The notes under the pieces are model-generated. The model was given only the letters and a program-made list of their open reading frames with translations. It had not been told where the DNA came from and did not search any database. From the IMG/VR virus record IMGVR_UViG_3300045988_005581: a stretch of DNA of 44,370 nucleotides, one strand, 5' to 3'. A program made the translations under genes and the position numbers. Of the stretch, positions 1 to 44,370 are shown one piece after another; position 1 is the first letter of the stretch; the number at the start of each line of letters is the position of its first letter. Source of the stretch: a virus. Lineage: Duplodnaviria; Heunggongvirae; Uroviricota; Caudoviricetes.

Positions 1-119
1 ATTTTTTTTATCTATTTTCTGTGATGACTAGTTGACTATTATCCTCGACCCTATTATATTTACTTCATCGACAACGAGAACGGAGTAGAGAGAAATGGGC
101 AACGTATCGACGATAGAAA
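1..119. repeat. Terminal duplication (copy 1), identical to 44252..44370
   Basis: Bases 1..119 match 44252..44370 exactly by eye; the junction lies in the T-run of the terminator at 44231..44260. Implies a unit length of 44,251 bp; the repeat touches both window edges so its true extent is unknown. Confidence 0.9.
32..60 (+). promoter_or_regulatory. sigma70-like promoter TTGACT-N17-TATATT
   Basis: TTGACT at 32-37, 17-bp spacer, TATATT at 55-60; about 35 nt upstream of the first ORF (ATG 95). Confidence 0.5.
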
Positions 120-6786: not shown

Positions 6787-7247
6787 TGATGGGCTTTTTC
6801 AAAGTAACTGATGTGCCGTCACGTCGCGTAGTCCAGTACGCTCGGGTGTCTGGCTCTGGTGAGAACGTGGTGTTTATTGAGGATGAAAGTGTACTGGGTA
6901 CACCGGTAGACGACATGCCGTTTGCGGATAAAACCGGCATTGCGCTGCCTGCGGCCGGTATGCTCTATGAGATTCCGTATCTGGCGGACGCAGGCGATGT
7001 GTATTTCTCTGTGCAACCAAAAGACGCTGAACTGGCCGACGGCAGCGCGACTATCACTGTCGAAGTTAAAGCAGGTGAAGCGCCGTATGCACTGACCTGG
7101 TACAAAGACGGTAAGGAAGTTGTCAACGCCCCGGAAGAGGCACTTTCCTTGACGGTTAACGCAGTGGGTGAATACTTCGTTAAAGTTACCGATGCTGATG
7201 GTGTAGAGGCTGTCAGTAAAGCTGCGAAGGTCACTAAGCCCGAATGA
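6786..7247 (+). CDS. Ig-like domain protein (possible head decoration)
   Basis: C-terminal segment YALTWYKDGKEVV...GEYFVKVTDADG resembles Ig-like/BIG-type domains; shares the motif with ORF 10559..10909. Confidence 0.6.
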   Translation: MMGFFKVTDVPSRRVVQYARVSGSGENVVFIEDESVLGTPVDDMPFADKTGIALPAAGMLYEIPYLADAGDVYFSVQPKDAELADGSATITVEVKAGEAPYALTWYKDGKEVVNAPEEALSLTVNAVGEYFVKVTDADGVEAVSKAAKVTKPE

Positions 7248-7251
7248 TAAA

Positions 7252-7278
7252 AGGCCCCATTAAGGGGCCTTAGTTTTC
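7252..7278. terminator. bidirectional intrinsic terminator
   Basis: AGGCCCC (7252-7258) / GGGGCCT (7264-7270) with 5-nt loop; T-runs on both strands. Lies between convergent genes. Confidence 0.65.
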
Positions 7279-7480
7279 AACGGAATCTTGTGTTTAAATC
7301 CTGCTCGTGGACGACCCTCAGAACAGTGTCATAATCCCCGTATCTTCCAGGTTCAAATACATCTAATGCCTTGTAAGCAGACATTGCGTCAGGGAAAACC
7401 TGCAGAACCTTTTTAACACGGCACAAGTCACCGTCGAACTCTTCATCGAACTCTTGAACTACTTCGCAAATTGCATACAT
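7277..7480 (-). CDS. hypothetical acidic protein (67 aa), solitary antisense gene
   Basis: ATG at 7480 (minus) preceded by GGGGGTG RBS and a sigma70-like promoter; terminated by the bidirectional terminator. Confidence 0.5.
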   Translation of the reverse strand: MYAICEVVQEFDEEFDGDLCRVKKVLQVFPDAMSAYKALDVFEPGRYGDYDTVLRVVHEQDLNTRFR

Positions 7481-7507
7481 TTTTCACCCCCTGCTTAAGT
7501 TAACTGA

Positions 7508-7536
7508 ATAGTACCCTATTATATTGGGGTGTGCAA
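7508..7536 (-). promoter_or_regulatory. sigma70-like promoter TTGCAC-N17-TACTAT (minus strand) with embedded dyad
   Basis: On the minus strand: TTGCAC (7531-7536), 17 bp, TACTAT (7508-7513); dyad AATAG-N4-CTATT at 7507-7520. About 25 bp upstream of the ATG at 7480. Confidence 0.5.
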
Positions 7537-7602
7537 ACTATTTATTTACTTATTCCAGTTATTCCGCTCAATTGTAAATGTTGGAATAAACTATTCGAAT
7601 AG

Positions 7603-7631
7603 TTGACTTTTCACTAAAAATATGATAAGCT
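7603..7631 (+). promoter_or_regulatory. promoter P_A: TTGACT-N17-TGnTAAGCT (extended -10)
   Basis: TTGACT 7603-7608, 17-bp spacer, TG 7623-7624, TAAGCT 7626-7631. Identical core promoter at 39890..39918. Preceded by the perfect palindrome ACTATTCGAATAGT (7590-7603). Confidence 0.6.
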
Positions 7632-7637
7632 CCACCT

Positions 7638-7838
7638 GAGCTTGTGAAGTATGAACAAGCGACCGCGGCGCGGGCAGGTAACGGAGCGGGACGTAAGTCC
7701 TGAGTGTAGTTACGCTGACGCGTTCGGAAGGGCCATACTCTATTGCTTGTGTAAAAAGTAACAGGTTTACTTAGATTACGCCGTTTCTATGTTTAAATGA
7801 TAAGGACTAGCGCCCTGCTTTAAGGCAGGGCTTTACTT
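7638..7838 (+). ncRNA. candidate short terminated transcript / structured leader (element A)
   Basis: Region between P_A and the terminator at 7812..7838; shares a 43-nt identical 5' arm (7626-7668) and a 23-nt identical 3' arm (7723-7745) with element B at 39913-40032. Not shown to be transcribed. Confidence 0.35.
7812..7838 (+). terminator. intrinsic terminator 18 nt upstream of the spanin start
   Basis: GCCCTGC (7812-7818) / GCAGGGC (7825-7831), loop TTTAAG, then TTTACTT. Confidence 0.6.
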
Positions 7839-7855
7839 ATCGAGAAAGGGGAAAC

Positions 7856-8242
7856 ATGAATCTTAAAGCAACCGTCGTAGCAGGAGCATGTTTCATCATC
7901 CTGGCTTACACACACGGCATTTATCAGTACCGCAGCGGCTGGCACGAAGGCCGCGCTAATCTCGTTTCGCAGCAACAGCAGAAAGCACAGGCCGAGTTAG
8001 CGAAGAAAACACAACGGCAGCAGCAAGATGAATCAAAGGCCGCCGCCGCTGACAACGAAGGCAAGACGAAATCAGAGGTGATCACCCGTGAAGTCGTTAA
8101 GTACATTAAAACTCCTGGTCGCAGCGTGTGCACTTTCGACCCTGAGCGCGTGCAGCTCAAGTCCCGCGCCGTCGCAAACGCCAATTCCATCCCCGGATAC
8201 GACGATGATGCAGCCGCCGTGCAAGCTGGCACCGCCGAGTAG
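7856..8242 (+). CDS. i-spanin (Rz-like inner-membrane spanin)
   Basis: N-terminal TM segment (VVAGACFIILAY), charged Gln/Ala/Lys-rich coiled-coil-like middle region, and an out-of-frame lipoprotein ORF overlapping its 3' half. Confidence 0.7.
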   Translation: MNLKATVVAGACFIILAYTHGIYQYRSGWHEGRANLVSQQQQKAQAELAKKTQRQQQDESKAAAADNEGKTKSEVITREVVKYIKTPGRSVCTFDPERVQLKSRAVANANSIPGYDDDAAAVQAGTAE

Positions 8243-8351
8243 CGACGCTGACGAGGATTTAGCTATCGACGTTCAGAACGCTGAATGCGTACGGCAGCTG
8301 CGGCTGAAAGTGTTCATGTTGCAGGATTACGTGAGGAATATTCTGGAATAG
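8088..8351 (+). CDS. o-spanin (Rz1-like outer-membrane lipoprotein), overlapped architecture
   Basis: GTG start at 8088 with GAGGTGA RBS; signal peptide plus lipobox LSAC; proline-rich mature region; +1-frame overlap with the i-spanin extending beyond its stop. Confidence 0.75.
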   Translation: MKSLSTLKLLVAACALSTLSACSSSPAPSQTPIPSPDTTMMQPPCKLAPPSSDADEDLAIDVQNAECVRQLRLKVFMLQDYVRNILE

Positions 8352-8433
8352 TTGCCTTGCATGTTGGAATAATTTATTCTTGACATGTAAATCCGGGTGG
8401 CCCGGGTTCCAACGTCCAGGGGACATACTGACT

Positions 8434-9138
8434 ATGAATCGTTTTTTACGTTATCCGTTCCAGGAAGAAGCTGGGGCAGAAGATAAAGCTGGTGGCGGTG
8501 ACGCGCCGAAAATGTTCACCGCTGAAGAAGTTCAGGCGCTGATTGAGAAAGAAGTTGCCGGGCTTAAGGCTAATCAGGAAGCATTGTTGGCGGAGAAGAA
8601 AGAAGCCGCTCGCAAAGCAAAAGAGGCCGAAGAAGAACGGCAGCGCGCGCACCAGGAGGCGTTAAAAGCCGCTGGTAAGATGGATGAGTTCGAAAAGACG
8701 ATTCGTAGCCAGTATGACCCGGTGTTAGCCGAGAAAGACGGTCGCATCTCCAGAATGGCAGAGCGTATCCTCGGCAGCGAACGTAAAGCGGTGCTAGGCT
8801 CTTTCGCGGGTGACTTTATTACCCCAGAAGCAGTGGACATTCTTGCGCCGTTCGTTAAGACTGAGTTCGAAGGCGATGATGTGGTTACTAAGTTTGTTGG
8901 CGCAGACGGCAACGTAATCACGACTGACCCGGAACAGTTCCGCAAATACTTGCGAGAACACAAAGCGTTTTCACATTTGATTAAAGCAAATGCAGCTTCC
9001 GGCGGCGGGGCTTCCGGTAGCAAAGGCGGCGGGGCCGCACCAGCGTTTAAAGACATGAGTGAAGCGGAGCGTATCGCTCTGTACGAATCGAACCCTGCCG
9101 AATTTGAACGGCAACTTAAAGCCCTGAGGAAAAAATAA
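8434..9138 (+). CDS. scaffolding protein (putative)
   Basis: ATG 8434 (tool start 8380 is TTG); Glu/Ala/Lys-rich predicted coiled coil; immediately upstream of the major capsid gene. Confidence 0.6.
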   Translation: MNRFLRYPFQEEAGAEDKAGGGDAPKMFTAEEVQALIEKEVAGLKANQEALLAEKKEAARKAKEAEEERQRAHQEALKAAGKMDEFEKTIRSQYDPVLAEKDGRISRMAERILGSERKAVLGSFAGDFITPEAVDILAPFVKTEFEGDDVVTKFVGADGNVITTDPEQFRKYLREHKAFSHLIKANAASGGGASGSKGGGAAPAFKDMSEAERIALYESNPAEFERQLKALRKK

Positions 9139-10187
9139 TGGCAATTACTACTATCGGCGACATCGTAACTGGTAAAGAATCGGTAATCCTGTCCTACATG
9201 ACAGAGGACCCGGTAGAGAAAACCGCGTTCTTCCAGTCCGGTATCCTTACCTCGACTCCGTATGCCGCCGCTATCGCAAACGGCCCGTCCAACAAAGCGG
9301 TCCTGCCGTACTGGAAAGCTATTGATACCTCTATCGAGCCGAACTACTCGAACGACGTATATCAGGACGTCGCCACCCCGCGTAACGTGCAAACCGGTGA
9401 GATGGATGTTCGCGTAGCTTACCTGAACGAAGGTTTTGGTCAGGCTGACCTGACGGTAGAACTGACCAGCCAGAATCCGCTGCAATCCGTGGCTTCCCGT
9501 CTGGATAACTTCTGGCAGCGTCAGGCACAACGCCGTCTTATTGCTACCGCGCTCGGTCTGTACAATGATAACGTAGCGGCTACCGATGCGTACCACGAGC
9601 AGAACGACATGGTTATTGACGTGTCCGCTACTCTGGGCTTCGACTCCGGCGCGTTCATCGATGCTACCCAGACTATGGGCGATGCGCTGATGGGTAACGG
9701 TGGTGAAGTGCTTGGCGCTATCGCGATGCACAGCTTCGTTTATGCGCAGGCGCGTAAGCAGCAGCTTATCGACTTCATTCGCGACGCTGACAACAACACC
9801 ATGTTCGCCACCTACCAGGGCTATCGTGTGATTGTTGACGACAGCATGACCGTAGTCGGAACTGGCAACAGCCGTAAGTTCATCTCCATCATCTTCGGCA
9901 ACGGTGCTATCGGTTACGGCGAAGGTTCTCCGTCAAACCCGCTGGAATACGAGCGCGAAGCGTCTCGCGGTAACGGTGGTGGTGTCGAAACCCTGTGGAC
10001 CCGTAAGACCTGGTTGCTGCATCCGTTTGGTTACAGTTTCACCAGCACTGTAATCACCGGCAACGGCACCGAGACTATCGCCCGCTCTGCTTCCTGGCAG
10101 GACCTGGCGAACGCTTCCAACTGGAACCGTGTGGTTGACCGTAAGCATGTACCGATTGCCTTCCTGGTAACTGGTGTCGGGGCTTAA
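9138..10187 (+). CDS. major capsid protein
   Basis: 349 aa, strong RBS GAGGA, follows scaffold and is followed by a strong intrinsic terminator (typical for highly expressed capsid genes). Assignment by synteny and size. Confidence 0.8.
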   Translation: MAITTIGDIVTGKESVILSYMTEDPVEKTAFFQSGILTSTPYAAAIANGPSNKAVLPYWKAIDTSIEPNYSNDVYQDVATPRNVQTGEMDVRVAYLNEGFGQADLTVELTSQNPLQSVASRLDNFWQRQAQRRLIATALGLYNDNVAATDAYHEQNDMVIDVSATLGFDSGAFIDATQTMGDALMGNGGEVLGAIAMHSFVYAQARKQQLIDFIRDADNNTMFATYQGYRVIVDDSMTVVGTGNSRKFISIIFGNGAIGYGEGSPSNPLEYEREASRGNGGGVETLWTRKTWLLHPFGYSFTSTVITGNGTETIARSASWQDLANASNWNRVVDRKHVPIAFLVTGVGA

Positions 10188-10203
10188 GGTTAAGATATAA
10201 TCG

Positions 10204-10230
10204 AGAGGGACTTCGGTCCCTCTTTTCATT
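10204..10230 (+). terminator. intrinsic terminator after the capsid gene
   Basis: AGAGGGA (10204-10210) / TCCCTCT (10217-10223), loop CTTCGG, then TTTTCATT. Confidence 0.6.
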
Positions 10231-14591: not shown

Positions 14592-14596
14592 AACTA

Positions 14597-14620
14597 AGGC
14601 CCCTTTCGGGGCCTTTTTCT
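14597..14620. terminator. bidirectional intrinsic terminator
   Basis: AGGCCCC (14597-14603) / GGGGCCT (14608-14614), loop TTTC, T-runs on both strands; separates the tail-shaft operon from the convergent minus-strand cassette. Confidence 0.7.
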
Positions 14621-15174
14621 TACAAACCTAATTTTAAAGCAATGTCTATAACGTTCGATTTAACGTCACCCGGTATGATGTAGGTGTCGTAATCTTTTAC
14701 ACCACTAACATCGTACAGATAGCCACGGCTATCGCAGATGAACGTATAGCCGTCACGATGGAGGCGGACGATTCGCACGTCATGCCCCGCGGCGACGATA
14801 GGGGCAACTTCACTGGCGAATCCACCATCGGACACTACAAAAACTTCGTCGCCGTCAGGCAAGTTTTCAGCAAGATACTTACCGAAATAATCATCGCCGA
14901 ATACCGGTTTAATGAATTGCTCAGAAATGGCAATCATTAACCGGCGGCGGGACAACCCATTAAGAAAACCCTCGGGTTTTTCTTTCCGCGCCCGGTCGTC
15001 GTAGCCGTCGAGAAATTCGTGGTAAGCATCCTGGCCTAACGCTGCCAAAGCAATATTGAACATTGGATTCTTGAAACTGGTAGTTCCTTTCGCAAAGCCC
15101 ATTTCTACCAGCGCCATAGCAAGCGTGTCTTTCCCGCAACCCGCAGGGCCATTAAGAATAATTACCTTAGCCAT
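14620..15174 (-). CDS. deoxynucleoside monophosphate kinase-like P-loop kinase
   Basis: P-loop GPAGCGKDT near the N-terminus; the GKDT variant and overall spacing resemble T4 gp1-type dNMP kinases (recalled, not aligned). 184 aa. Confidence 0.65.
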   Translation of the reverse strand: MAKVIILNGPAGCGKDTLAMALVEMGFAKGTTSFKNPMFNIALAALGQDAYHEFLDGYDDRARKEKPEGFLNGLSRRRLMIAISEQFIKPVFGDDYFGKYLAENLPDGDEVFVVSDGGFASEVAPIVAAGHDVRIVRLHRDGYTFICDSRGYLYDVSGVKDYDTYIIPGDVKSNVIDIALKLGL

Positions 15175-15662
15175 TATTTATCGCTCCCGTGTGGTTTTAA
15201 GTGTGTAGAGTTCCCGTTACAGTCGTATTCGGTAACTGCGTGTGCGGTTATGCCGAGGTCACGGAAATGCTTTATTACCGCTGGAGAGTCGTCGAACGCA
15301 CACAAGATTCTTTCCAGTCCGAAAGCACGCAACACCTCTTCTTTAATTACGATGTCTTTTCTGTTGTCGTGTTTGCTGCGCATGATTAGCGTGTCAAACC
15401 TAACGTTATTCTCTCGTAACCATTCGCGAGTCTCCTCCTCAGCGTCATCACTTCGCCCGGTAAGGATAATTATAGTAAGTCCGGAATGCCACAGTACGCT
15501 ACACAAATGGATATTGTCGTATATCGGAGCGTCATCTTTGCAGGCCATGTTAAATGGCTTCCACGCCCACGTTTCTCCGTAGTTATCTTTTGGTAACAGG
15601 TGTAAGCGATGGGTACCGTCAGCCAATGTCCCGTCTAAATCGAAAATTACAATATCTTTCAT
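15174..15662 (-). CDS. HAD-superfamily phosphatase
   Basis: N-terminal DLDGTL (HAD motif I, DxDxT); 162 aa; TAATG-coupled to the kinase gene. Confidence 0.7.
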   Translation of the reverse strand: MKDIVIFDLDGTLADGTHRLHLLPKDNYGETWAWKPFNMACKDDAPIYDNIHLCSVLWHSGLTIIILTGRSDDAEEETREWLRENNVRFDTLIMRSKHDNRKDIVIKEEVLRAFGLERILCAFDDSPAVIKHFRDLGITAHAVTEYDCNGNSTHLKPHGSDK

Positions 15663-16789
15663 CCCAGCATCTCCGGTGAAATAGTTAAACGTGCGACCTC
15701 GCCATATTCGGCGCTATAAGTAATTACATTTGCACTGCGGCCCGACATCCATCCGCCGCGAGAGGCGTAGGCGTCTTTAGCCGCTAAGGTGCGGTGTTGC
15801 TCAACAATCATGTTACGGCTTTCTACAATCTTCTGGTGGTGCAGATGGCCTACGTGGGCGTAGCTGTAAACACTCTCGCCGAACGCTTTACGGAACTTGG
15901 CAATCATAACCGGTTCGATAGCGTCGAATCGTGCTTTATGCCCGTGATGGAAGAACAGCGTCGTTTTGCCGTGTTGCACCATCTTGTAAACATCCGGCGA
16001 CGTATCGACGAACACGCGCGGCTCATTGTCGTACAGCGTACTGAACATCTCAGCCAACCAAATCATACCCGATTCGTCGTGATTCCCTTGCACGATAAGC
16101 AAGCGAACATTTTTATGCTTAACCAACGCCATATCAACGACACGGCGGACCATACGAATCATGTAACGGACCAGTTTCTGATAGCGCGTGTCAGCGTCAA
16201 GGACATGACCGCTTGCGGGCGTAACGGCATCAAGACTATCGAAGTGCGCTAAGTCGCCAAGAAGATTGATAACCCCAGTACCGGCATCCGGTGCTTTCTG
16301 GAATGCTGCATCGAACCAACGAGAGAACAGGTCTTCCGCAATCTTCATGTCCCAGTCGTCGCCGCTCTCGTCGGCCCAGGCCAGCATACCGAGATGGAAA
16401 TCGGATACAGTGTAAAGATTGAGCAGCTTATCGTCCCGTTTGGCACGAACGGCTTTAACAGGTGCAACGGGCGTAATCTCCGATTTCATGCCTTCGATCA
16501 CGGCTTTCATCAATTCAACCTGACGTTCGGCGTCAGTGTCGGTCTTAACCCATTGCAACTTAGTGTTGCCGAACTCATCCACCAGTGACGACGTTCCTTT
16601 AATCTTATAGCCGTCCGGGACAAGGTGGCTAACATCACGTCCGTGACCTACACCTTTCTTAGCCAGCTTCGCTTTACGGATACGAATTACGCGGTCTGAG
16701 ATGCCGTATTTACGGGCGATGTCTACATTCTTCATTCCGGCGTTCAATTCTTCCTGTAACTGTTCGTCGGTTATTTTCTTCCGGGCCAT
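15659..16789 (-). CDS. calcineurin-like metallophosphoesterase with N-terminal HTH-like domain
   Basis: Motifs SDFH, GDLAHFD, GNHDE, HHGH and GHLHH match metallophosphoesterase signatures; N-terminal NVDIARKYGISDRVIR is HTH-like. RBS GAGGAAG. Confidence 0.75.
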   Translation of the reverse strand: MARKKITDEQLQEELNAGMKNVDIARKYGISDRVIRIRKAKLAKKGVGHGRDVSHLVPDGYKIKGTSSLVDEFGNTKLQWVKTDTDAERQVELMKAVIEGMKSEITPVAPVKAVRAKRDDKLLNLYTVSDFHLGMLAWADESGDDWDMKIAEDLFSRWFDAAFQKAPDAGTGVINLLGDLAHFDSLDAVTPASGHVLDADTRYQKLVRYMIRMVRRVVDMALVKHKNVRLLIVQGNHDESGMIWLAEMFSTLYDNEPRVFVDTSPDVYKMVQHGKTTLFFHHGHKARFDAIEPVMIAKFRKAFGESVYSYAHVGHLHHQKIVESRNMIVEQHRTLAAKDAYASRGGWMSGRSANVITYSAEYGEVARLTISPEMLG

Positions 16790-16827
16790 GCTTACTTCCT
16801 CGTGTTTAGGATTTGTCTTATAGTAGC

Positions 16828-17019
16828 CTACTTCTCTTTCACGTTCGAGTTACAAGCCCAGATTAAAATGAATACCCACGGCAACAGAACCCACCCGAGA
16901 AATAAGTTAGCCATGAATATCGCTAGCTTTGCTTTATGGTTTCGCATATGGGCCACAAAAAACGGGATAAAATAAACGCCTACAACAATAATTAAAAAGA
17001 ACATAGCGATACCGGTCAT
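16828..17019 (-). CDS. superinfection-immunity-like small membrane protein
   Basis: Two TM segments with YFIPFFVAHMRNH...LFLGWVLLPWVFILIWA, resembling the Imm_superinfect family signature from memory. ATG 17019 with AGGAG RBS (tool start 17046 upstream). Confidence 0.6.
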   Translation of the reverse strand: MTGIAMFFLIIVVGVYFIPFFVAHMRNHKAKLAIFMANLFLGWVLLPWVFILIWACNSNVKEK

Positions 17020-17061
17020 AACATAACTCCTGATTTGAGATAACATCGTTGGTGTAAGTGA

Positions 17062-17090
17062 ATAGTACGCTATTATATCAGGGTGTGCAA
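17062..17090 (-). promoter_or_regulatory. sigma70-like promoter TTGCAC-N17-TACTAT (minus strand) with embedded dyad
   Basis: TTGCAC = 17085-17090, TACTAT = 17062-17067 on the minus strand; dyad AATAG-N4-CTATT 17061-17074; near-identical to the element at 7505-7540. Confidence 0.5.
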
Positions 17091-17197
17091 GTAGTATGTT
17101 AGAATAATTTTGCGCCTAGTGTCGCACACGAAAAGCGGGTGGTTCCCGTCTGGCGCATTTCCTTTAACCAGTAACCTCTTAACCAAAGGATTAAAGA

Positions 17198-39889: not shown

Positions 39890-39918
39890 TTGACTTTTAC
39901 TAAGAAATGTGCTAAGCT
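39890..39918 (+). promoter_or_regulatory. promoter P_B: TTGACT-N17-TGnTAAGCT (extended -10)
   Basis: TTGACT 39890-39895, 17-bp spacer, TG 39910-39911, TAAGCT 39913-39918; same hexamers and spacing as P_A at 7603..7631. Confidence 0.6.
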
Positions 39919-39924
39919 CCACCT

Positions 39925-40160
39925 GAGCTTGTGAAGTATGAACAAGCGACCGCGGTGCGGCAGGAAACGGAGCGGTGCGTCAGCACTGAGTGTAGTGTCG
40001 CTGCCTGCATTCGGAAGGGCCATACTCTATTGTAAATCCCGTCTAAATAACCCAAGTCACTAATAATTAAAAGTTTCTATAGTTGCCGTAAGCAAGGTAG
40101 AGAGTACTTCACTCCGCTGGGGTGGGCTAAAGCCCACCCGCTGCGTTGCGTACTCTTTAA
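39925..40160 (+). ncRNA. candidate short terminated transcript / structured leader (element B)
   Basis: Paralogue of element A: identical 43-nt and 23-nt arms flanking a 54-nt core with about 12 substitutions and one indel; followed by GC hairpin GGTGGGC-TAAA-GCCCACC (40121-40138) and a U-rich stretch. Not shown to be transcribed. Confidence 0.35.
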
Positions 40161-40198: not shown

Positions 40199-40227
40199 TC
40201 GCACACCCCAACATAATAGGATACTAT
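40199..40227 (+). promoter_or_regulatory. sigma70-like promoter TCGCAC-N17-TACTAT with embedded dyad
   Basis: TCGCAC 40199-40204, TACTAT 40222-40227; dyad AATAG-N4-CTATT 40215-40228; same element as 7505-7540 in reverse orientation. Confidence 0.5.
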
Positions 40228-40261
40228 TCACTTATCGGAACGAGACAGAGGAGTGATGGTT

Positions 40262-43124: not shown

Positions 43125-43433
43125 TTGGATAAATTTACTGAAACAGTGACGGGGTGGCTTCTCGCTGCCGCATTAGCTGGTGGGGTAATAGGCTTACGGC
43201 AACACAAAGCCACTATTACCGGCCCTGTCGATGCTCTCTGTTTTCTCGCCACTGGCTTTGCGTGCGCCGTATTCGGTGCGCCTCTCGCCGCTCAATGGTT
43301 CGGTATCGCAGGTGAACGCGAAATAGCGGGCCTTGGATTCATCATTGCTATTCTCTGGATGCCAATTTATTCCCGTCTCTCTGGCATTGTCGCCGGAGAA
43401 TACATCGCACGTCGCGGAGGTGGTAATGAATGA
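43125..43433 (+). CDS. holin (putative)
   Basis: 102 aa with at least two hydrophobic TM-like segments and a charged C-terminus; TTG start 6 nt after GGAGGA; directly upstream of the endolysin gene. Confidence 0.6.
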   Translation: MDKFTETVTGWLLAAALAGGVIGLRQHKATITGPVDALCFLATGFACAVFGAPLAAQWFGIAGEREIAGLGFIIAILWMPIYSRLSGIVAGEYIARRGGGNE

Positions 43434-43698
43434 GTTATTCTGGTTTGGTGGTATGCTCGCAATCGGGAGCACATCGCTGTTTAACGTATACCACCCCAGC
43501 GTAGATGATGGGCTGTTCGGGCGTGTGCTTTATATTCTGACTGCTATTGTCTGCGCCGCCGGTTGTATCCACTTGTTACAGGGCAGCATGTCACCTACGC
43601 TGCCTGAGACATTAATCACATTAGTTGCGCTGCGTCAGATTCGCCAGGCGTGGCTGTCATACGGAGGACATAAGCGTGTCTCGAAACATTTCAGATAA
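43426..43698 (+). CDS. second membrane protein of the lysis cassette (holin/antiholin-like)
   Basis: ATG 43426 overlapping the holin stop; two hydrophobic segments; 3' end overlaps the endolysin start. Confidence 0.5.
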   Translation: MNELFWFGGMLAIGSTSLFNVYHPSVDDGLFGRVLYILTAIVCAAGCIHLLQGSMSPTLPETLITLVALRQIRQAWLSYGGHKRVSKHFR

Positions 43699-44164
43699 TG
43701 GGTTGCATTTCACCGCAGCATTTGAGGGATTCCGCGGAACCGCGTATCGCGCTACGCCAAATGAGAAGTACCTGACTATTGGGTACGGTCATTATGGGCC
43801 AGACGTAACGCCAGGCAAGACCATCACCCCGGGACAAGGCCTCCTGTTACTGAATCGTGATATGGCTAAGGCCGTAGCTGCGGTTGACGCAGCAGCACAC
43901 CATTCATTGACACAGGCACAGTTCGATGCAGTGTGCGACCTGGTATACAACGCAGGTGCTGGTGTGATTGCTGCTACTACCGGCACGGGTAAGGCACTGC
44001 GTTCTGGTGATATTGCAACGCTGCGGGCTAAGCTGGCGCTGTTCATCAACCAGAACGGCAAACCGATACTTGGACTGCGTCGTCGTACCGCCGGTCGTCT
44101 GGCGCTGTTCGACGGTAAACCGTGGCAGGAGGCTGAGGCTATCGGGCGCGCGGTGAAAGGTTGA
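43676..44164 (+). CDS. endolysin, lysozyme-like (GH24-type)
   Basis: GTG start 43676 with GGAGGA RBS; FEGFRGTAY...TIGYGH resembles the catalytic region of T4/lambda-type lysozymes (recalled). Confidence 0.8.
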   Translation: MSRNISDNGLHFTAAFEGFRGTAYRATPNEKYLTIGYGHYGPDVTPGKTITPGQGLLLLNRDMAKAVAAVDAAAHHSLTQAQFDAVCDLVYNAGAGVIAATTGTGKALRSGDIATLRAKLALFINQNGKPILGLRRRTAGRLALFDGKPWQEAEAIGRAVKG

Positions 44165-44230: not shown

Positions 44231-44260
44231 CCCGGCCCTGACCCAGCCGGGATTTTTTTT
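44231..44260 (+). terminator. strong intrinsic terminator after the lysis cassette
   Basis: CCCGGC (44231-44236) / GCCGGG (44246-44251), 9-nt loop, then eight consecutive T (44253-44260). Confidence 0.75.
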
Positions 44261-44370
44261 ATCTATTTTCTGTGATGACTAGTTGACTATTATCCTCGAC
44301 CCTATTATATTTACTTCATCGACAACGAGAACGGAGTAGAGAGAAATGGGCAACGTATCGACGATAGAAA
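44252..44370. repeat. Terminal duplication (copy 2), identical to 1..119
   Basis: Exact repeat of the window start, including the promoter at 32..60 and the first 25 nt of the first ORF. Confidence 0.9.

Follow-up and report, generated by a model that had tools for sequence, protein, structure and literature searches.

The curated "Jersey" family of overlapped spanins has a 155-bp overlap between the two genes and a constant Cys45 and Cys67 in the o-spanin; its members include Jersey, SETP3, SE2, K1G, K1H, K1ind1-3, HK578, EP23 and others (Kongari 2018, PMC6139136). A literature search did not find a published function test of Jersey-family spanins. A gene layout in which the spanins lie apart from the holin and endolysin genes is already in print for the Guernseyvirinae phage Schulenberg (2019, PMC6763661), and a further published source is PMC7203180. 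In T4-like phages the lysis genes are likewise scattered rather than clustered (Kongari 2018, PMC6139136). Hence, linkage of spanins to a lysis cassette is not required.

The window analyzed here, a stretch of 44,370 nucleotides, is a complete circular genome of a K1G-like Kagunavirus. Both window ends carry an exact 119-bp direct repeat; counting it once gives a unique genome of 44,251 bp. The spanin pair lies within the head-morphogenesis region, with a decoration gene before it and a scaffold gene after it. The pair comprises the following features:

Positions 7856..8242, plus strand: i-spanin gene, 128 aa, with a predicted N-terminal membrane helix (about residues 5-23) and a periplasmic domain with Cys92.
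Positions 8075..8080, plus strand: Shine-Dalgarno-like GAGGTG, 7 nt 5' of the o-spanin GTG.
Positions 8088..8351, plus strand: o-spanin gene, 87-aa precursor with GTG start and lipobox LSAC, Cys22 being encoded at 8151-8153.

The i-spanin gene starts with ATG, 5' of which a Shine-Dalgarno-like aaagggga is found. Hydropathy (KD-19) peaks over residues 5-23 with a value of 1.59, and the rest of the protein has no hydrophobic segment. The predicted topology, a single N-terminal transmembrane helix with the remainder in the periplasm, is that of an i-spanin. A single-sequence AF2 model places a helix over residues 3-64 (pLDDT about 75-88) and is informative for residues 1-64 only, the C-terminal half being of low confidence. 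The protein matches the Rz-like spanin family phrog_2536 (E 1e-56) and is 93.8% identical to the "putative spanin" of K1ind3 and 66% identical to a protein of the Jerseyvirus PVP-SE2. A 39%-identical homologue is encoded directly 3' of the lysozyme gene in a lambdoid Klebsiella phage, which ties this spanin family to lysis.

The o-spanin is read in the +1 frame relative to the i-spanin. The two genes overlap by 155 nt and the o-spanin gene ends 109 nt past the end of the i-spanin gene. An in-frame stop codon at 8079-8081 leaves the frame open from 8082, making GTG 8088 the earliest possible start; the next start codons in this frame, ATG 8205 and ATG 8208, are located downstream of the lipobox. 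A GGAGG(T/C) element is present at equal spacing from the o-spanin start in Kagunavirus and Jerseyvirus relatives. These data bear out the GTG start that a sequence-only reading of this DNA had proposed. That reading would have been given up had 8088..8351 lacked a lipoprotein signal. The PROSITE PS51257 lipobox rule fits, with K2, LSAC and Cys22 within the permitted 15-35, and residue +2 of the lipoprotein is Ser rather than Asp, as expected for sorting to the outer membrane. The lipoprotein and transmembrane calls were made with the PROSITE rule and hydropathy, respectively. The mature o-spanin of 66 aa would contain nine prolines together with Cys45 and Cys67; cysteines are thus present in both subunits. 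Two Rz-like spanin families were matched, phrog_1267 (E 3e-20) and phrog_5672 (E 4e-30), and the o-spanin of K1ind3 is 89.7% identical.

Many GenBank records shorten the o-spanin to 41-47 aa or exchange the i- and o-spanin labels. Conceivably, the second gene is only this short reading frame, starting at ATG 8205 or 8208. Its product has no signal peptide, therefore it would not be an outer-membrane lipoprotein and there would be no two-component spanin. The short frame is the only form annotated in Bas75, S119, LSPA1, PVP-SE2 and EnJE6, and phrog_5672 was itself built from 47-aa calls. However, the frame is open from 8082 and the GTG is preceded by a correctly spaced GAGG. Four genera (Kagunavirus, Jerseyvirus, Cornellvirus and Dhillonvirus) retain the signal peptide and lipobox cysteine in this frame despite differing start codons, the start being ATG in Cornellvirus, PSDA-2 and HK578. 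Moreover, the long form is annotated in K1ind3, XY2 and others, and o-spanin starts are known to be mis-called often (Kongari 2018, PMC6139136). The short reading frame as the true gene is thus highly improbable; the GTG start is the right call and a better one than that of many GenBank records. This is of value for annotation, as many public records of therapy-relevant E. coli and Salmonella phages shorten or mislabel the correct 87-aa o-spanin.

Sequence variation was analyzed separately for the two parts of the o-spanin gene. In the part outside the overlap (8243-8348), codon variability in the o-frame is 0.67 at position 3 versus 0.14 at position 2. Within the overlap, variation follows the i-frame. 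Hence, the signal peptide and linker of the o-spanin are constrained in their features only and not in their sequence.

Taken together, the ORFs at 7856..8242 and 8088..8351 and the PHROG matches of both products to Rz-like spanins confirm the out-of-frame overlapped i-spanin/o-spanin pair with lipobox LSAC as real, in agreement with the sequence-only reading. Searches of the two spanins against Pfam and NCBIfam gave nothing over the cut-off (DUF2514, 16 bits versus 26; lipo_LppU, 22 versus 135), and tblastn found both spanins in 665 phage records. The pair agrees with the Jersey family in the 155-bp overlap, the 128-aa i-spanin, the 87-aa o-spanin and Cys22, Cys45 and Cys67, and its genome position is the same as in other Guernseyvirinae. 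No substantive differences were seen, making it another member of the family. Both pair and layout are already known, and the finding is an ordinary one because gene family and layout are documented and common to hundreds of related phages.

The holin and endolysin genes are found at the other end of the window:

Positions 43125..43433, plus strand: holin, 102 aa (phrog_2359 holin, E 4e-29).
Positions 43426..43698, plus strand: second holin or antiholin-like membrane protein, 90 aa from ATG 43426 (phrog_2508 holin, E 5e-33).
Positions 43676..44164, plus strand: soluble endolysin, 162 aa from GTG 43676 (PF00959 Phage_lysozyme, 94.4 bits; phrog_7).

The first of these proteins has two overlapping clusters of hydrophobic windows, roughly at residues 31-56 and 67-90, and the endolysin has no hydrophobic segment by hydropathy. 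The homologous pair of membrane proteins was named holin/antiholin in Schulenberg (PMC6763661). The PHROG holin matches and PF00959 agree with the earlier assignment of a holin, a second membrane protein and an endolysin to 43125..44164.

On the circular map these three genes lie upstream of the spanins, with 7,942 nt between the endolysin stop and the spanin ATG. The distance of about 8 kb given previously is therefore correct on the circle only; in linear coordinates of the window, spanins and cassette are about 35 kb apart. Small genes and the terminase, portal, head-morphogenesis and decoration genes occupy the interval, for which the sequence-only reading had named packaging and head genes. 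Predicted terminators between the cassette and spanin units are a hairpin at 44231-44251 with a T8 run, 3' of the endolysin gene, and a hairpin at 7251-7271. A location in the lysis cassette next to holin and endolysin, a common and non-defining trait of spanins, is thus absent here. The same split, with a gap of between 6.7 and 8.0 kb, is present in Bas75, PVP-SE2, FSL SP-031 and HK578. It occurs in Kagunavirus, Jerseyvirus, Cornellvirus and Dhillonvirus and is the norm for Guernseyvirinae and Dhillonvirus. The view that such a split is uncommon is not supported: the layout is lineage-wide and published (PMC6763661, PMC7203180), and T4-like phages scatter their lysis genes too (PMC6139136).

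The position outside the lysis cassette raises the question of whether the membrane protein and the lipoprotein have some other role in the envelope, such as superinfection exclusion. Phage lipoproteins such as Cor and Llp act in exclusion. However, overlapping genes for a type-II membrane protein and for a small lipoprotein that is rich in Pro, with periplasmic cysteines conserved, are the signature of spanins (PMC6139136), and the homologue in the lambdoid phage adjoins a lysozyme gene. Furthermore, whole-genome annotations of the close relative Bas75 and of the other Guernseyvirinae and Dhillonvirus genomes compared here list no further gene annotated as a spanin, despite a canonical holin, an endolysin and a Gram-negative host. 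We consider another envelope role very unlikely.

Function as a spanin can be outlined by analogy with the lambda Rz/Rz1 paradigm. The N-terminal helix of the i-spanin would anchor it in the inner membrane, with the remainder extending into the periplasm. Cys22 of the o-spanin precursor would receive the lipid, signal peptidase II would cleave the precursor, and the Ser at residue +2 would direct the lipoprotein to the outer membrane. The C-terminal parts of both proteins would then bind each other, giving a complex that spans the periplasm and is kept inactive by intact peptidoglycan. Once the canonical holin had freed the soluble endolysin and the wall was degraded, the complex would disrupt or fuse the outer membrane and complete lysis. 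Since spanins would be gated by peptidoglycan and not by their own timing, they need not sit in the lysis cassette; the complex would only need to accumulate ahead of holin triggering.

To describe expression of the pair, signals in the flanking DNA were compiled; promoters and terminators are given as pattern matches:

Positions 7603..7631, plus strand: predicted sigma-70 promoter with extended -10 (TTGACT, 17 nt, TG-n-TAAGCT), read from the sequence.
Positions 7812..7831, plus strand: GC-rich hairpin of terminator pattern with the tail TTTACTTAT, directly 5' of the i-spanin ribosome-binding site.
Positions 8352..8405, plus strand: conserved spanin-scaffold spacer, nearly invariant in an alignment of 10 distinct relatives.
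Positions 8352-8380, plus strand: conserved promoter-like TTGCCT-17-TATTCT, just before the scaffold gene.
Positions 8367-8379, plus strand: palindrome GAATAA-T-TTATTC in the spacer.
Positions 8393-8405, plus strand: small hairpin CCGGG-TGG-CCCGG in the spacer.

The predicted promoter has counterparts in Jerseyvirus (TAGACT..TGtTACGCT) and Cornellvirus (TGGATT..TGaTAACCT), and the annotators of PVP-SE2 predicted a promoter at the equivalent place. A leader of roughly 218 nt separates it from the spanin pair. The stem of the 7812..7831 hairpin is kept across genera by compensatory changes (CG/GC/UA at columns 275/286, and others). Strong termination at this hairpin is doubtful, because the U-tract is not conserved in Jerseyvirus and Cornellvirus; in the phage studied here it could halt a good part of the transcripts. 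The spanin-scaffold spacer shares a repeat with 7578-7596.

Two other candidate promoter elements were rejected. A 31-nt motif at 7506-7536, considered as spanin promoter, is present only in genomes with a minus-strand insert. On the complementary strand, the copies at 7506-7536 and 17060-17090 contain a perfect TATAAT and the copy at 40199-40229 contains CATAAT; in all three, this strand is directed at the neighboring divergent gene. TTGACA at 8380-8385, considered as -35 element of the scaffold gene, lacks a -10 partner, and Jerseyvirus does not conserve it.

A sequence pattern search between the o-spanin and scaffold genes found no terminator, and the next predicted plus-strand terminators are at 10203-10224 (after the capsid gene) and 14596-14615 (after the major tail gene). 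Transcription is thus predicted to start at the extended -10 promoter, pass through the structured leader into the spanin genes and run on into the scaffold and capsid genes, with a second promoter-like site before the scaffold gene. The pair had been described as heading the scaffold-capsid-tail operon, and judged by the predicted signals this is plausible: promoter, leader and the lack of a following terminator favor it, and the second promoter-like site and the arrangements in FSL SP-031, PSDA-2 and HK578 do not. In FSL SP-031 and PSDA-2 a minus-strand ORF separates the spanins from the scaffold gene. In HK578 the spanins close the upstream packaging operon and are followed by annotated terminators; hence, the operon position of the spanins is not conserved. 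The same observations could mean that the pair is a self-contained, moron-like transcription unit between head-gene blocks, neither first cistron nor tied in its expression to the structural genes. Such a unit would have its own conserved promoter and leader, and the scaffold gene has the second conserved site immediately before it. Both flanks are, in addition, hot spots at which minus-strand genes insert (here, a 67-aa ORF; methyltransferase, PAPS reductase and hypothetical genes elsewhere). However, only 82-84 nt without a terminator-like site lie between the o-spanin stop and the scaffold ATG in Kagunavirus and Jerseyvirus, so that any transcript crossing the spanins must run on into the scaffold gene. 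We regard an independent unit as possible, though somewhat unlikely.

The leader preceding the spanins was analyzed for RNA structure. It contains a structured element, a second copy of which was found together with a promoter elsewhere in the genome:

Positions 7640..7734, plus strand: structured leader RNA with stem I (7640-7660), a long irregular stem II (7662-7727) and then a conserved GGAAGGG.
Positions 39890..40032, plus strand: second copy of the promoter and leader-RNA module, 5' of the rightward operon that ends in the holins and endolysin.

RNAalifold on a plain MAFFT alignment of the leader recovered the terminator-like hairpin and a long-range 5'/3' helix but nothing else, because the core was misaligned between genera. 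The plain alignment was replaced by folds of single variants and an alignment fitted to a covariance model (R1). When the variants of Kagunavirus, Jerseyvirus and Cornellvirus were each folded by MFE, all had the same stem II architecture. Of the cells in the model-fitted alignment, 95% are paired, and 10 of the 23 pairs have changes on both sides, a level reached by none of 500 shuffles. The region 7200-8500 had no Rfam match at E ≤ 1. The covarying RNA structure is real and has no Rfam family. A 36-aa ORF at 7651..7761 was rejected as a small protein; its ATG is deleted in Jerseyvirus, no PHROG match was found, and differences between this region and the second module copy are compensatory changes independent of frame.

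R1 matches the second copy at 39949-40021 (74 bits, E 5e-15). Many Kagunavirus records contain two to three matching places, and several relatives have one module copy only; the R1 search did not detect a second copy in the Bas75, PVP-SE2 and FSL SP-031 genomes. The two lysis units had been described as differently controlled. This is not supported: in this genome the same promoter and leader-RNA module precedes both, and the only Kagunavirus RNA-seq places the lysozyme and capsid genes in one temporal class, the spanin and holin genes being outside its data (PMC12645636).

The put element of HK022 is an RNA of about 70 nt with two stems that closely follows a promoter and has two genome copies (PMC9378689). 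By description the architecture here is similar: stem I, the long bulged stem II and GGAAGGG cover about 95 nt, beginning about 2-3 nt after the predicted transcription start, in two copies. HK022 put allows RNA polymerase to read through downstream terminators without phage proteins via the beta' zinc-binding domain. No RNA or antitermination element of Guernseyvirinae came up in the literature searched. The leader might be a cis-acting control, for example a put-like antiterminator or a switch of translation or stability, that sets transcription into the spanin, scaffold and capsid genes. Because the module is duplicated at 39890-40032, before the holin/endolysin operon, a single RNA device could coordinate the two halves of the split lysis functions. 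We consider such a role doubtful; this unannotated leader RNA is nevertheless the sole part of the locus that could lead further.

We are thus largely confident that the locus encodes a genuine Jersey-family two-component spanin of a K1G-like Kagunavirus, with a lambda-type role in lysis, the layout of its lineage and the transcription predicted above. As a clean case from nature, the layout illustrates that spanins do not have to be encoded next to holin and endolysin, and the split fits the view that they are gated by intact peptidoglycan rather than by transcription timing.

Lambda Rz/Rz1 shares the two-component topology of this pair, in which a type-II protein of the inner membrane is combined with a small, Pro-rich lipoprotein of the outer membrane and cysteines lie in the periplasm; the presumed role, to complete lysis once holin and endolysin have acted, is also the same. 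However, sequence similarity is not detectable, and the link is by PHROG annotation at family level only. Rz1 is fully embedded in Rz, whereas the genes here are overlapped; Rz/Rz1 come last in the S-R-Rz/Rz1 cassette, with which the late operon begins, whereas the pair here is about 8 kb from holin and endolysin. As in the present phage, spanin genes are unlinked to the endolysin gene in T4 (PseT.3/PseT.2) and T7 (gp18.5/gp18.7), but T4 has the separated and T7 the embedded type, and both sequence families differ from this one. The T7 genes 17.5 and 18.5/18.7 lie among packaging genes, a long way from lysozyme 3.5. The LysB and LysC genes of P2 are found within the lysis cassette. They are overlapped like the pair here, the o-spanin gene starting inside the i-spanin gene and extending past it (class in PMC6139136), and belong to a different sequence family. 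The Schulenberg report (PMC6763661) concerns a different isolate and contains no analysis of regulation, but it states the same split.

Both ORFs of the overlapped spanin pair called by a sequence-only reading of the window are present:

7856..8242, plus strand: i-spanin ORF, 128 aa, ATG start with aaagggga upstream
8088..8351, plus strand: o-spanin ORF, 87 aa, +1 frame relative to the i-spanin, 155-nt overlap

The GTG start of the o-spanin was likewise borne out: its frame opens past a stop at 8079-8081, GTG 8088 is the first possible start and has GAGGTG 7 nt upstream, and the next in-frame starts (ATG 8205 and 8208) fall beyond the lipobox. The o-spanin N-terminus, MKSLSTLKLLVAACALSTLSAC, satisfies the PROSITE lipoprotein rule (Cys22, Ser at residue +2), and thus the lipoprotein signal claimed for 8088..8351 is indeed predicted. 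The mature o-spanin has 66 aa with nine prolines, Cys45 and Cys67. Hydropathy gave the i-spanin a single hydrophobic segment at about residues 5-23; membrane-helix and lipoprotein assignments are rule-based calls. A single-sequence AlphaFold model of the i-spanin consists of one long helix (residues 3-64) of moderate confidence, with nothing reliable beyond it. The products of the two overlapping genes are a membrane protein of type II and a small, proline-rich lipoprotein with conserved cysteines. Codon-position variability was computed across 19 distinct sequences. Past the end of the i-gene, variation lies mostly at o-frame third positions (0.67 vs 0.14 at second positions), and therefore indicates protein-level selection in the o-frame; within the overlap, variation tracks the i-frame. 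For the o-spanin signal peptide and linker, this suggests constraint on features, not on sequence. The lipoprotein ORF is retained in four genera despite differing start codons (GTG in Kagunavirus and Jerseyvirus, ATG in Cornellvirus and PSDA-2, TTG or ATG in HK578).

The i-spanin/o-spanin identity was confirmed by database matches. Both proteins hit Rz-like spanin families in PHROGs (phrog_2536, E 1e-56; phrog_1267, E 3e-20; phrog_5672, E 4e-30, the last made up of a truncated 47-aa o-spanin form); Pfam and NCBIfam yielded no match above cut-off for either. By tblastn, each was found in 665 phage records, mostly of Salmonella and Escherichia phages. In the K1ind3 record, the same overlapping pair, of 387 nt and 264 nt, bears the annotation "putative spanin; overlapping gene"; its products share 93.8% and 89.7% identity with the window proteins. 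Kongari et al. (2018; PMC6139136) describe a curated overlapped spanin family, "Jersey", with 27 member phages, K1G, K1H and K1ind1-3 among them, in which the overlap is 155 bp and the o-spanin has invariant cysteines at residues 45 and 67; all three features are seen in the window pair. The pair is already known as a member of this described family, and its genome place is the usual one. The o-spanin is often misannotated in public phage records (L001 5839-5982; L002 35962-36457; L007 1653-1796; L008 1671-1796; L011 1301-1796): Bas75, S119 and LSPA1 carry a 41-47-aa ORF without signal peptide as o-spanin, and in PVP-SE2 and EnJE6 the label "o-spanin" was put on the i-spanin ORF. The lipobox-bearing o-spanin is the 87-aa GTG-start form, as in K1ind3; many database entries annotate these genes less well than the earlier calls did.

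At its two ends the window carries an exact terminal direct repeat of 119 bp (1-119 and 44252-44370); hence, it is a circularly closed assembly of 44,251 unique bases. Over 7000-9200, Escherichia phages vB_EcoS-phiEc3 and vB_Eco_K-01 are 99.9% identical to it and many other K1G-like coliphages 94-98%; the record lines place these relatives in genus Kagunavirus, subfamily Guernseyvirinae. In agreement with the annotated relative Bas75, the gene order is terminase, portal, head morphogenesis, Hoc-like decoration, a small minus-strand ORF, spanins, scaffold, major capsid and tail genes, followed by leftward replication genes and a rightward small-gene block ending in two holins and the endolysin. 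The tail operon on the plus strand is broken, after the major tail gene and before the genes for the tail chaperones, by a minus-strand block of three to four genes (14620-17046) that is bracketed by a predicted bidirectional terminator at 14596-14615; the Bas75 counterpart of the block contains a DNA repair exonuclease. The lysis cassette proved real, with holin PHROG matches for two genes and a Pfam match for the third:

43125..43433, plus strand: holin, phrog_2359 match
43426..43698, plus strand: second holin, phrog_2508 match
43676..44164, plus strand: endolysin, GTG start, PF00959 (Phage_lysozyme)
44231-44251, plus strand: predicted terminator hairpin and T8 run, 3' of the endolysin
44283-44311 (= window 32-60): good sigma-70-like site after this terminator

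The terminator crosses the circle junction. Since the endolysin is a PF00959 protein without hydrophobic segment, it is a soluble enzyme that needs a canonical holin. The claimed separation of about 8 kb holds around the circle, where 7,942 nt filled by small ORFs, terminase, portal, head morphogenesis and decoration genes lie between endolysin stop and spanin ATG, but not in the linear window, where it appears as about 35 kb.

Separation of spanins from the cassette had been considered uncommon; within this lineage it is the rule.

Table. Endolysin-spanin gap in the window and compared phages
Window, Kagunavirus: 7,942 nt
Bas75, Kagunavirus-like (no genus in record; 98% identical over 7000-9200): 7,958 nt
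PVP-SE2, Jerseyvirus: 7,634 nt
FSL SP-031, Cornellvirus: 8,048 nt
HK578, Dhillonvirus: 6,672 nt
Klebsiella phage 2 LV-2017, lambdoid: no gap

In Bas75, PVP-SE2, FSL SP-031 and HK578 the pair always lies 3' of head-morphogenesis/decoration genes and 5' of the scaffold gene. The split is already in print for phage Schulenberg (2019; PMC6763661), and is implicit in the Golestan paper, with spanins as ORF7/8 and holins and endolysin as ORF66-68 (PMC7203180). In the temperate Klebsiella phage 2 LV-2017, the gene for a 39%-identical i-spanin lies directly downstream of the lysozyme gene (L004 24064-24905). Thus, the same spanin family occurs inside and outside lysis cassettes, and this arrangement ties it to lysis.

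The transcription context was read from predicted signals only. Past the end of the decoration gene (7247) come a GC hairpin (7251-7271) and a 67-aa ORF on the minus strand, and then:

7603-7631, plus strand: predicted, conserved extended -10 promoter (TTGACT, 17 nt, TG-n-TAAGCT), from an alignment of 25 relatives
7812-7831, plus strand: GC hairpin kept by compensatory changes, followed by the i-spanin ribosome-binding site and gene

Jerseyvirus and Cornellvirus versions of the promoter retain the TG and T-A---T positions, and the PVP-SE2 annotation likewise has a predicted promoter in this position. Next comes a leader of some 218 nt. The hairpin at 7812-7831 fits the terminator pattern in the window phage; its U-tract is not conserved. 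From the o-spanin stop to the scaffold ATG (8434 in the window) there are 82-84 nt, a spacer in which no terminator-like site was found; the next plus-strand ones are at 10203-10224 (after the capsid gene) and 14596-14615 (after the major tail gene). With a predicted promoter of their own and no terminator-like site before the scaffold gene, the spanins could fairly be read as heading a scaffold-capsid-tail operon. However, the spacer holds a near-invariant block, TTGCCT-17-TATTCT (8352-8380), with the palindrome GAATAA-T-TTATTC and a small hairpin, and a separate promoter for the scaffold gene is probable. Moreover, FSL SP-031 and PSDA-2 carry a minus-strand ORF between spanins and scaffold gene. 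The HK578 spanins, which overlap the end of the head-morphogenesis gene and have annotated terminators behind them, end an operon. Different control of the two units, as had been proposed, is unsupported, because in the sole Kagunavirus RNA-seq study the genes for lysozyme, Mu-F-like protein, capsid and tail share one "middle" class, and spanins go unmentioned (PMC12645636).

A 31-nt motif, GAATAGTACNCTATTATATNNGGGTGTGCAA, occurs in three copies (0 expected):

7506-7536, plus strand
17060-17090, plus strand
40199-40229, minus strand

Its complement carries TATAAT (CATAAT in the third copy) and in each case faces the first gene of a divergent block: in order, the 67-aa ORF on the minus strand, the block of minus-strand genes that ends at 17046, and the rightward operon from about 40253. 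The three copies probably represent one strong promoter shared by these blocks, and contain the inverted repeat AATAG-N4-CTATT. Half-sites of the type GGAATA/TATTCC are found immediately upstream of the predicted spanin promoter (7551-7596), as TATTCC-AGT-TATTCC and as GGAATAAACTATTC then GAATAG, and again over the predicted scaffold promoter (8352-8405), as GGAATAATTTATTC. Exact copies of ATGTTGGAATAA are present at 7578 and 8361, and a copy with a single mismatch at 17096. A phage regulator of late genes may bind at these half-sites. Both flanks of the pair are hot spots of minus-strand inserts varying among relatives: the 67-aa ORF in the window (7277-7480, no PHROG match), and PAPS reductase, adenine methyltransferase and hypothetical genes elsewhere:

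L003 24473-25327 and 26333-26512
L007 197-925
L010 1820-2335

When variants of the leader were folded separately, one long, bulged hairpin (7662-7727) with GGAAGGG after it came out alike for Kagunavirus, Jerseyvirus and the very different Cornellvirus sequence. A short hairpin, stem I, precedes it, read from the sequences as GCUUGU/ACAAGC in the window (7640-7660), ACGCU/AGCGU in Jerseyvirus and UUCGU/ACGAA in Cornellvirus, for which a competing longer fold was also predicted. A covariance model built from seven Kagunavirus variants recovered the Jerseyvirus copies at 39-48 bits. In the alignment, which is fitted to this model, 95% of cells were paired (25-41% in slid controls) and 10 of 23 pairs changed on both sides, values reached by 0 of 500 shuffles. 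Rfam gave no match over the leader. A 36-aa ORF overlapping the RNA was rejected as a small protein, as it is not conserved. A second window site, 39949-40021, was also hit by the model (74 bits, E 5e-15). The duplication, at 39890-40032, extends over the whole module from -35 hexamer to CTATTG; it lies upstream of the rightward operon running to holins and endolysin, and the differences fall at compensating stem positions. The conserved region at the spanin locus (7603-7845) comprises extended -10 promoter, two-stem RNA and the covarying hairpin, the promoter/RNA part being the one duplicated. Many Kagunavirus records contain two to three matching places; model searches of the Bas75, PVP-SE2 and FSL SP-031 genomes found the spanin-locus copy only. 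The HK022 put RNAs are about 70 nt long, with two bulged stem-loops, lie in two copies downstream of two promoters and act in terminator read-through (PMC9378689). The leader resembles them in layout, by description only, and by this analogy could be a put-like antitermination element; an sRNA or a translational or stability (5'-UTR) element would fit equally well.

In the phage, the pair is accompanied by two holin-like proteins and a soluble lysozyme. The spanin mechanism of lambda Rz/Rz1 is well established. By analogy, i-spanin and o-spanin would form a periplasm-spanning complex, restrained by the peptidoglycan mesh, which would fuse or disrupt the outer membrane after holin triggering and endolysin action. 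As the peptidoglycan would do the gating, the genes would need expression only before triggering, and placement among late structural genes would therefore be workable. T7 is another phage in which lysis genes are not clustered. The same holds for T4-like phages, according to Kongari et al. (PMC6139136).
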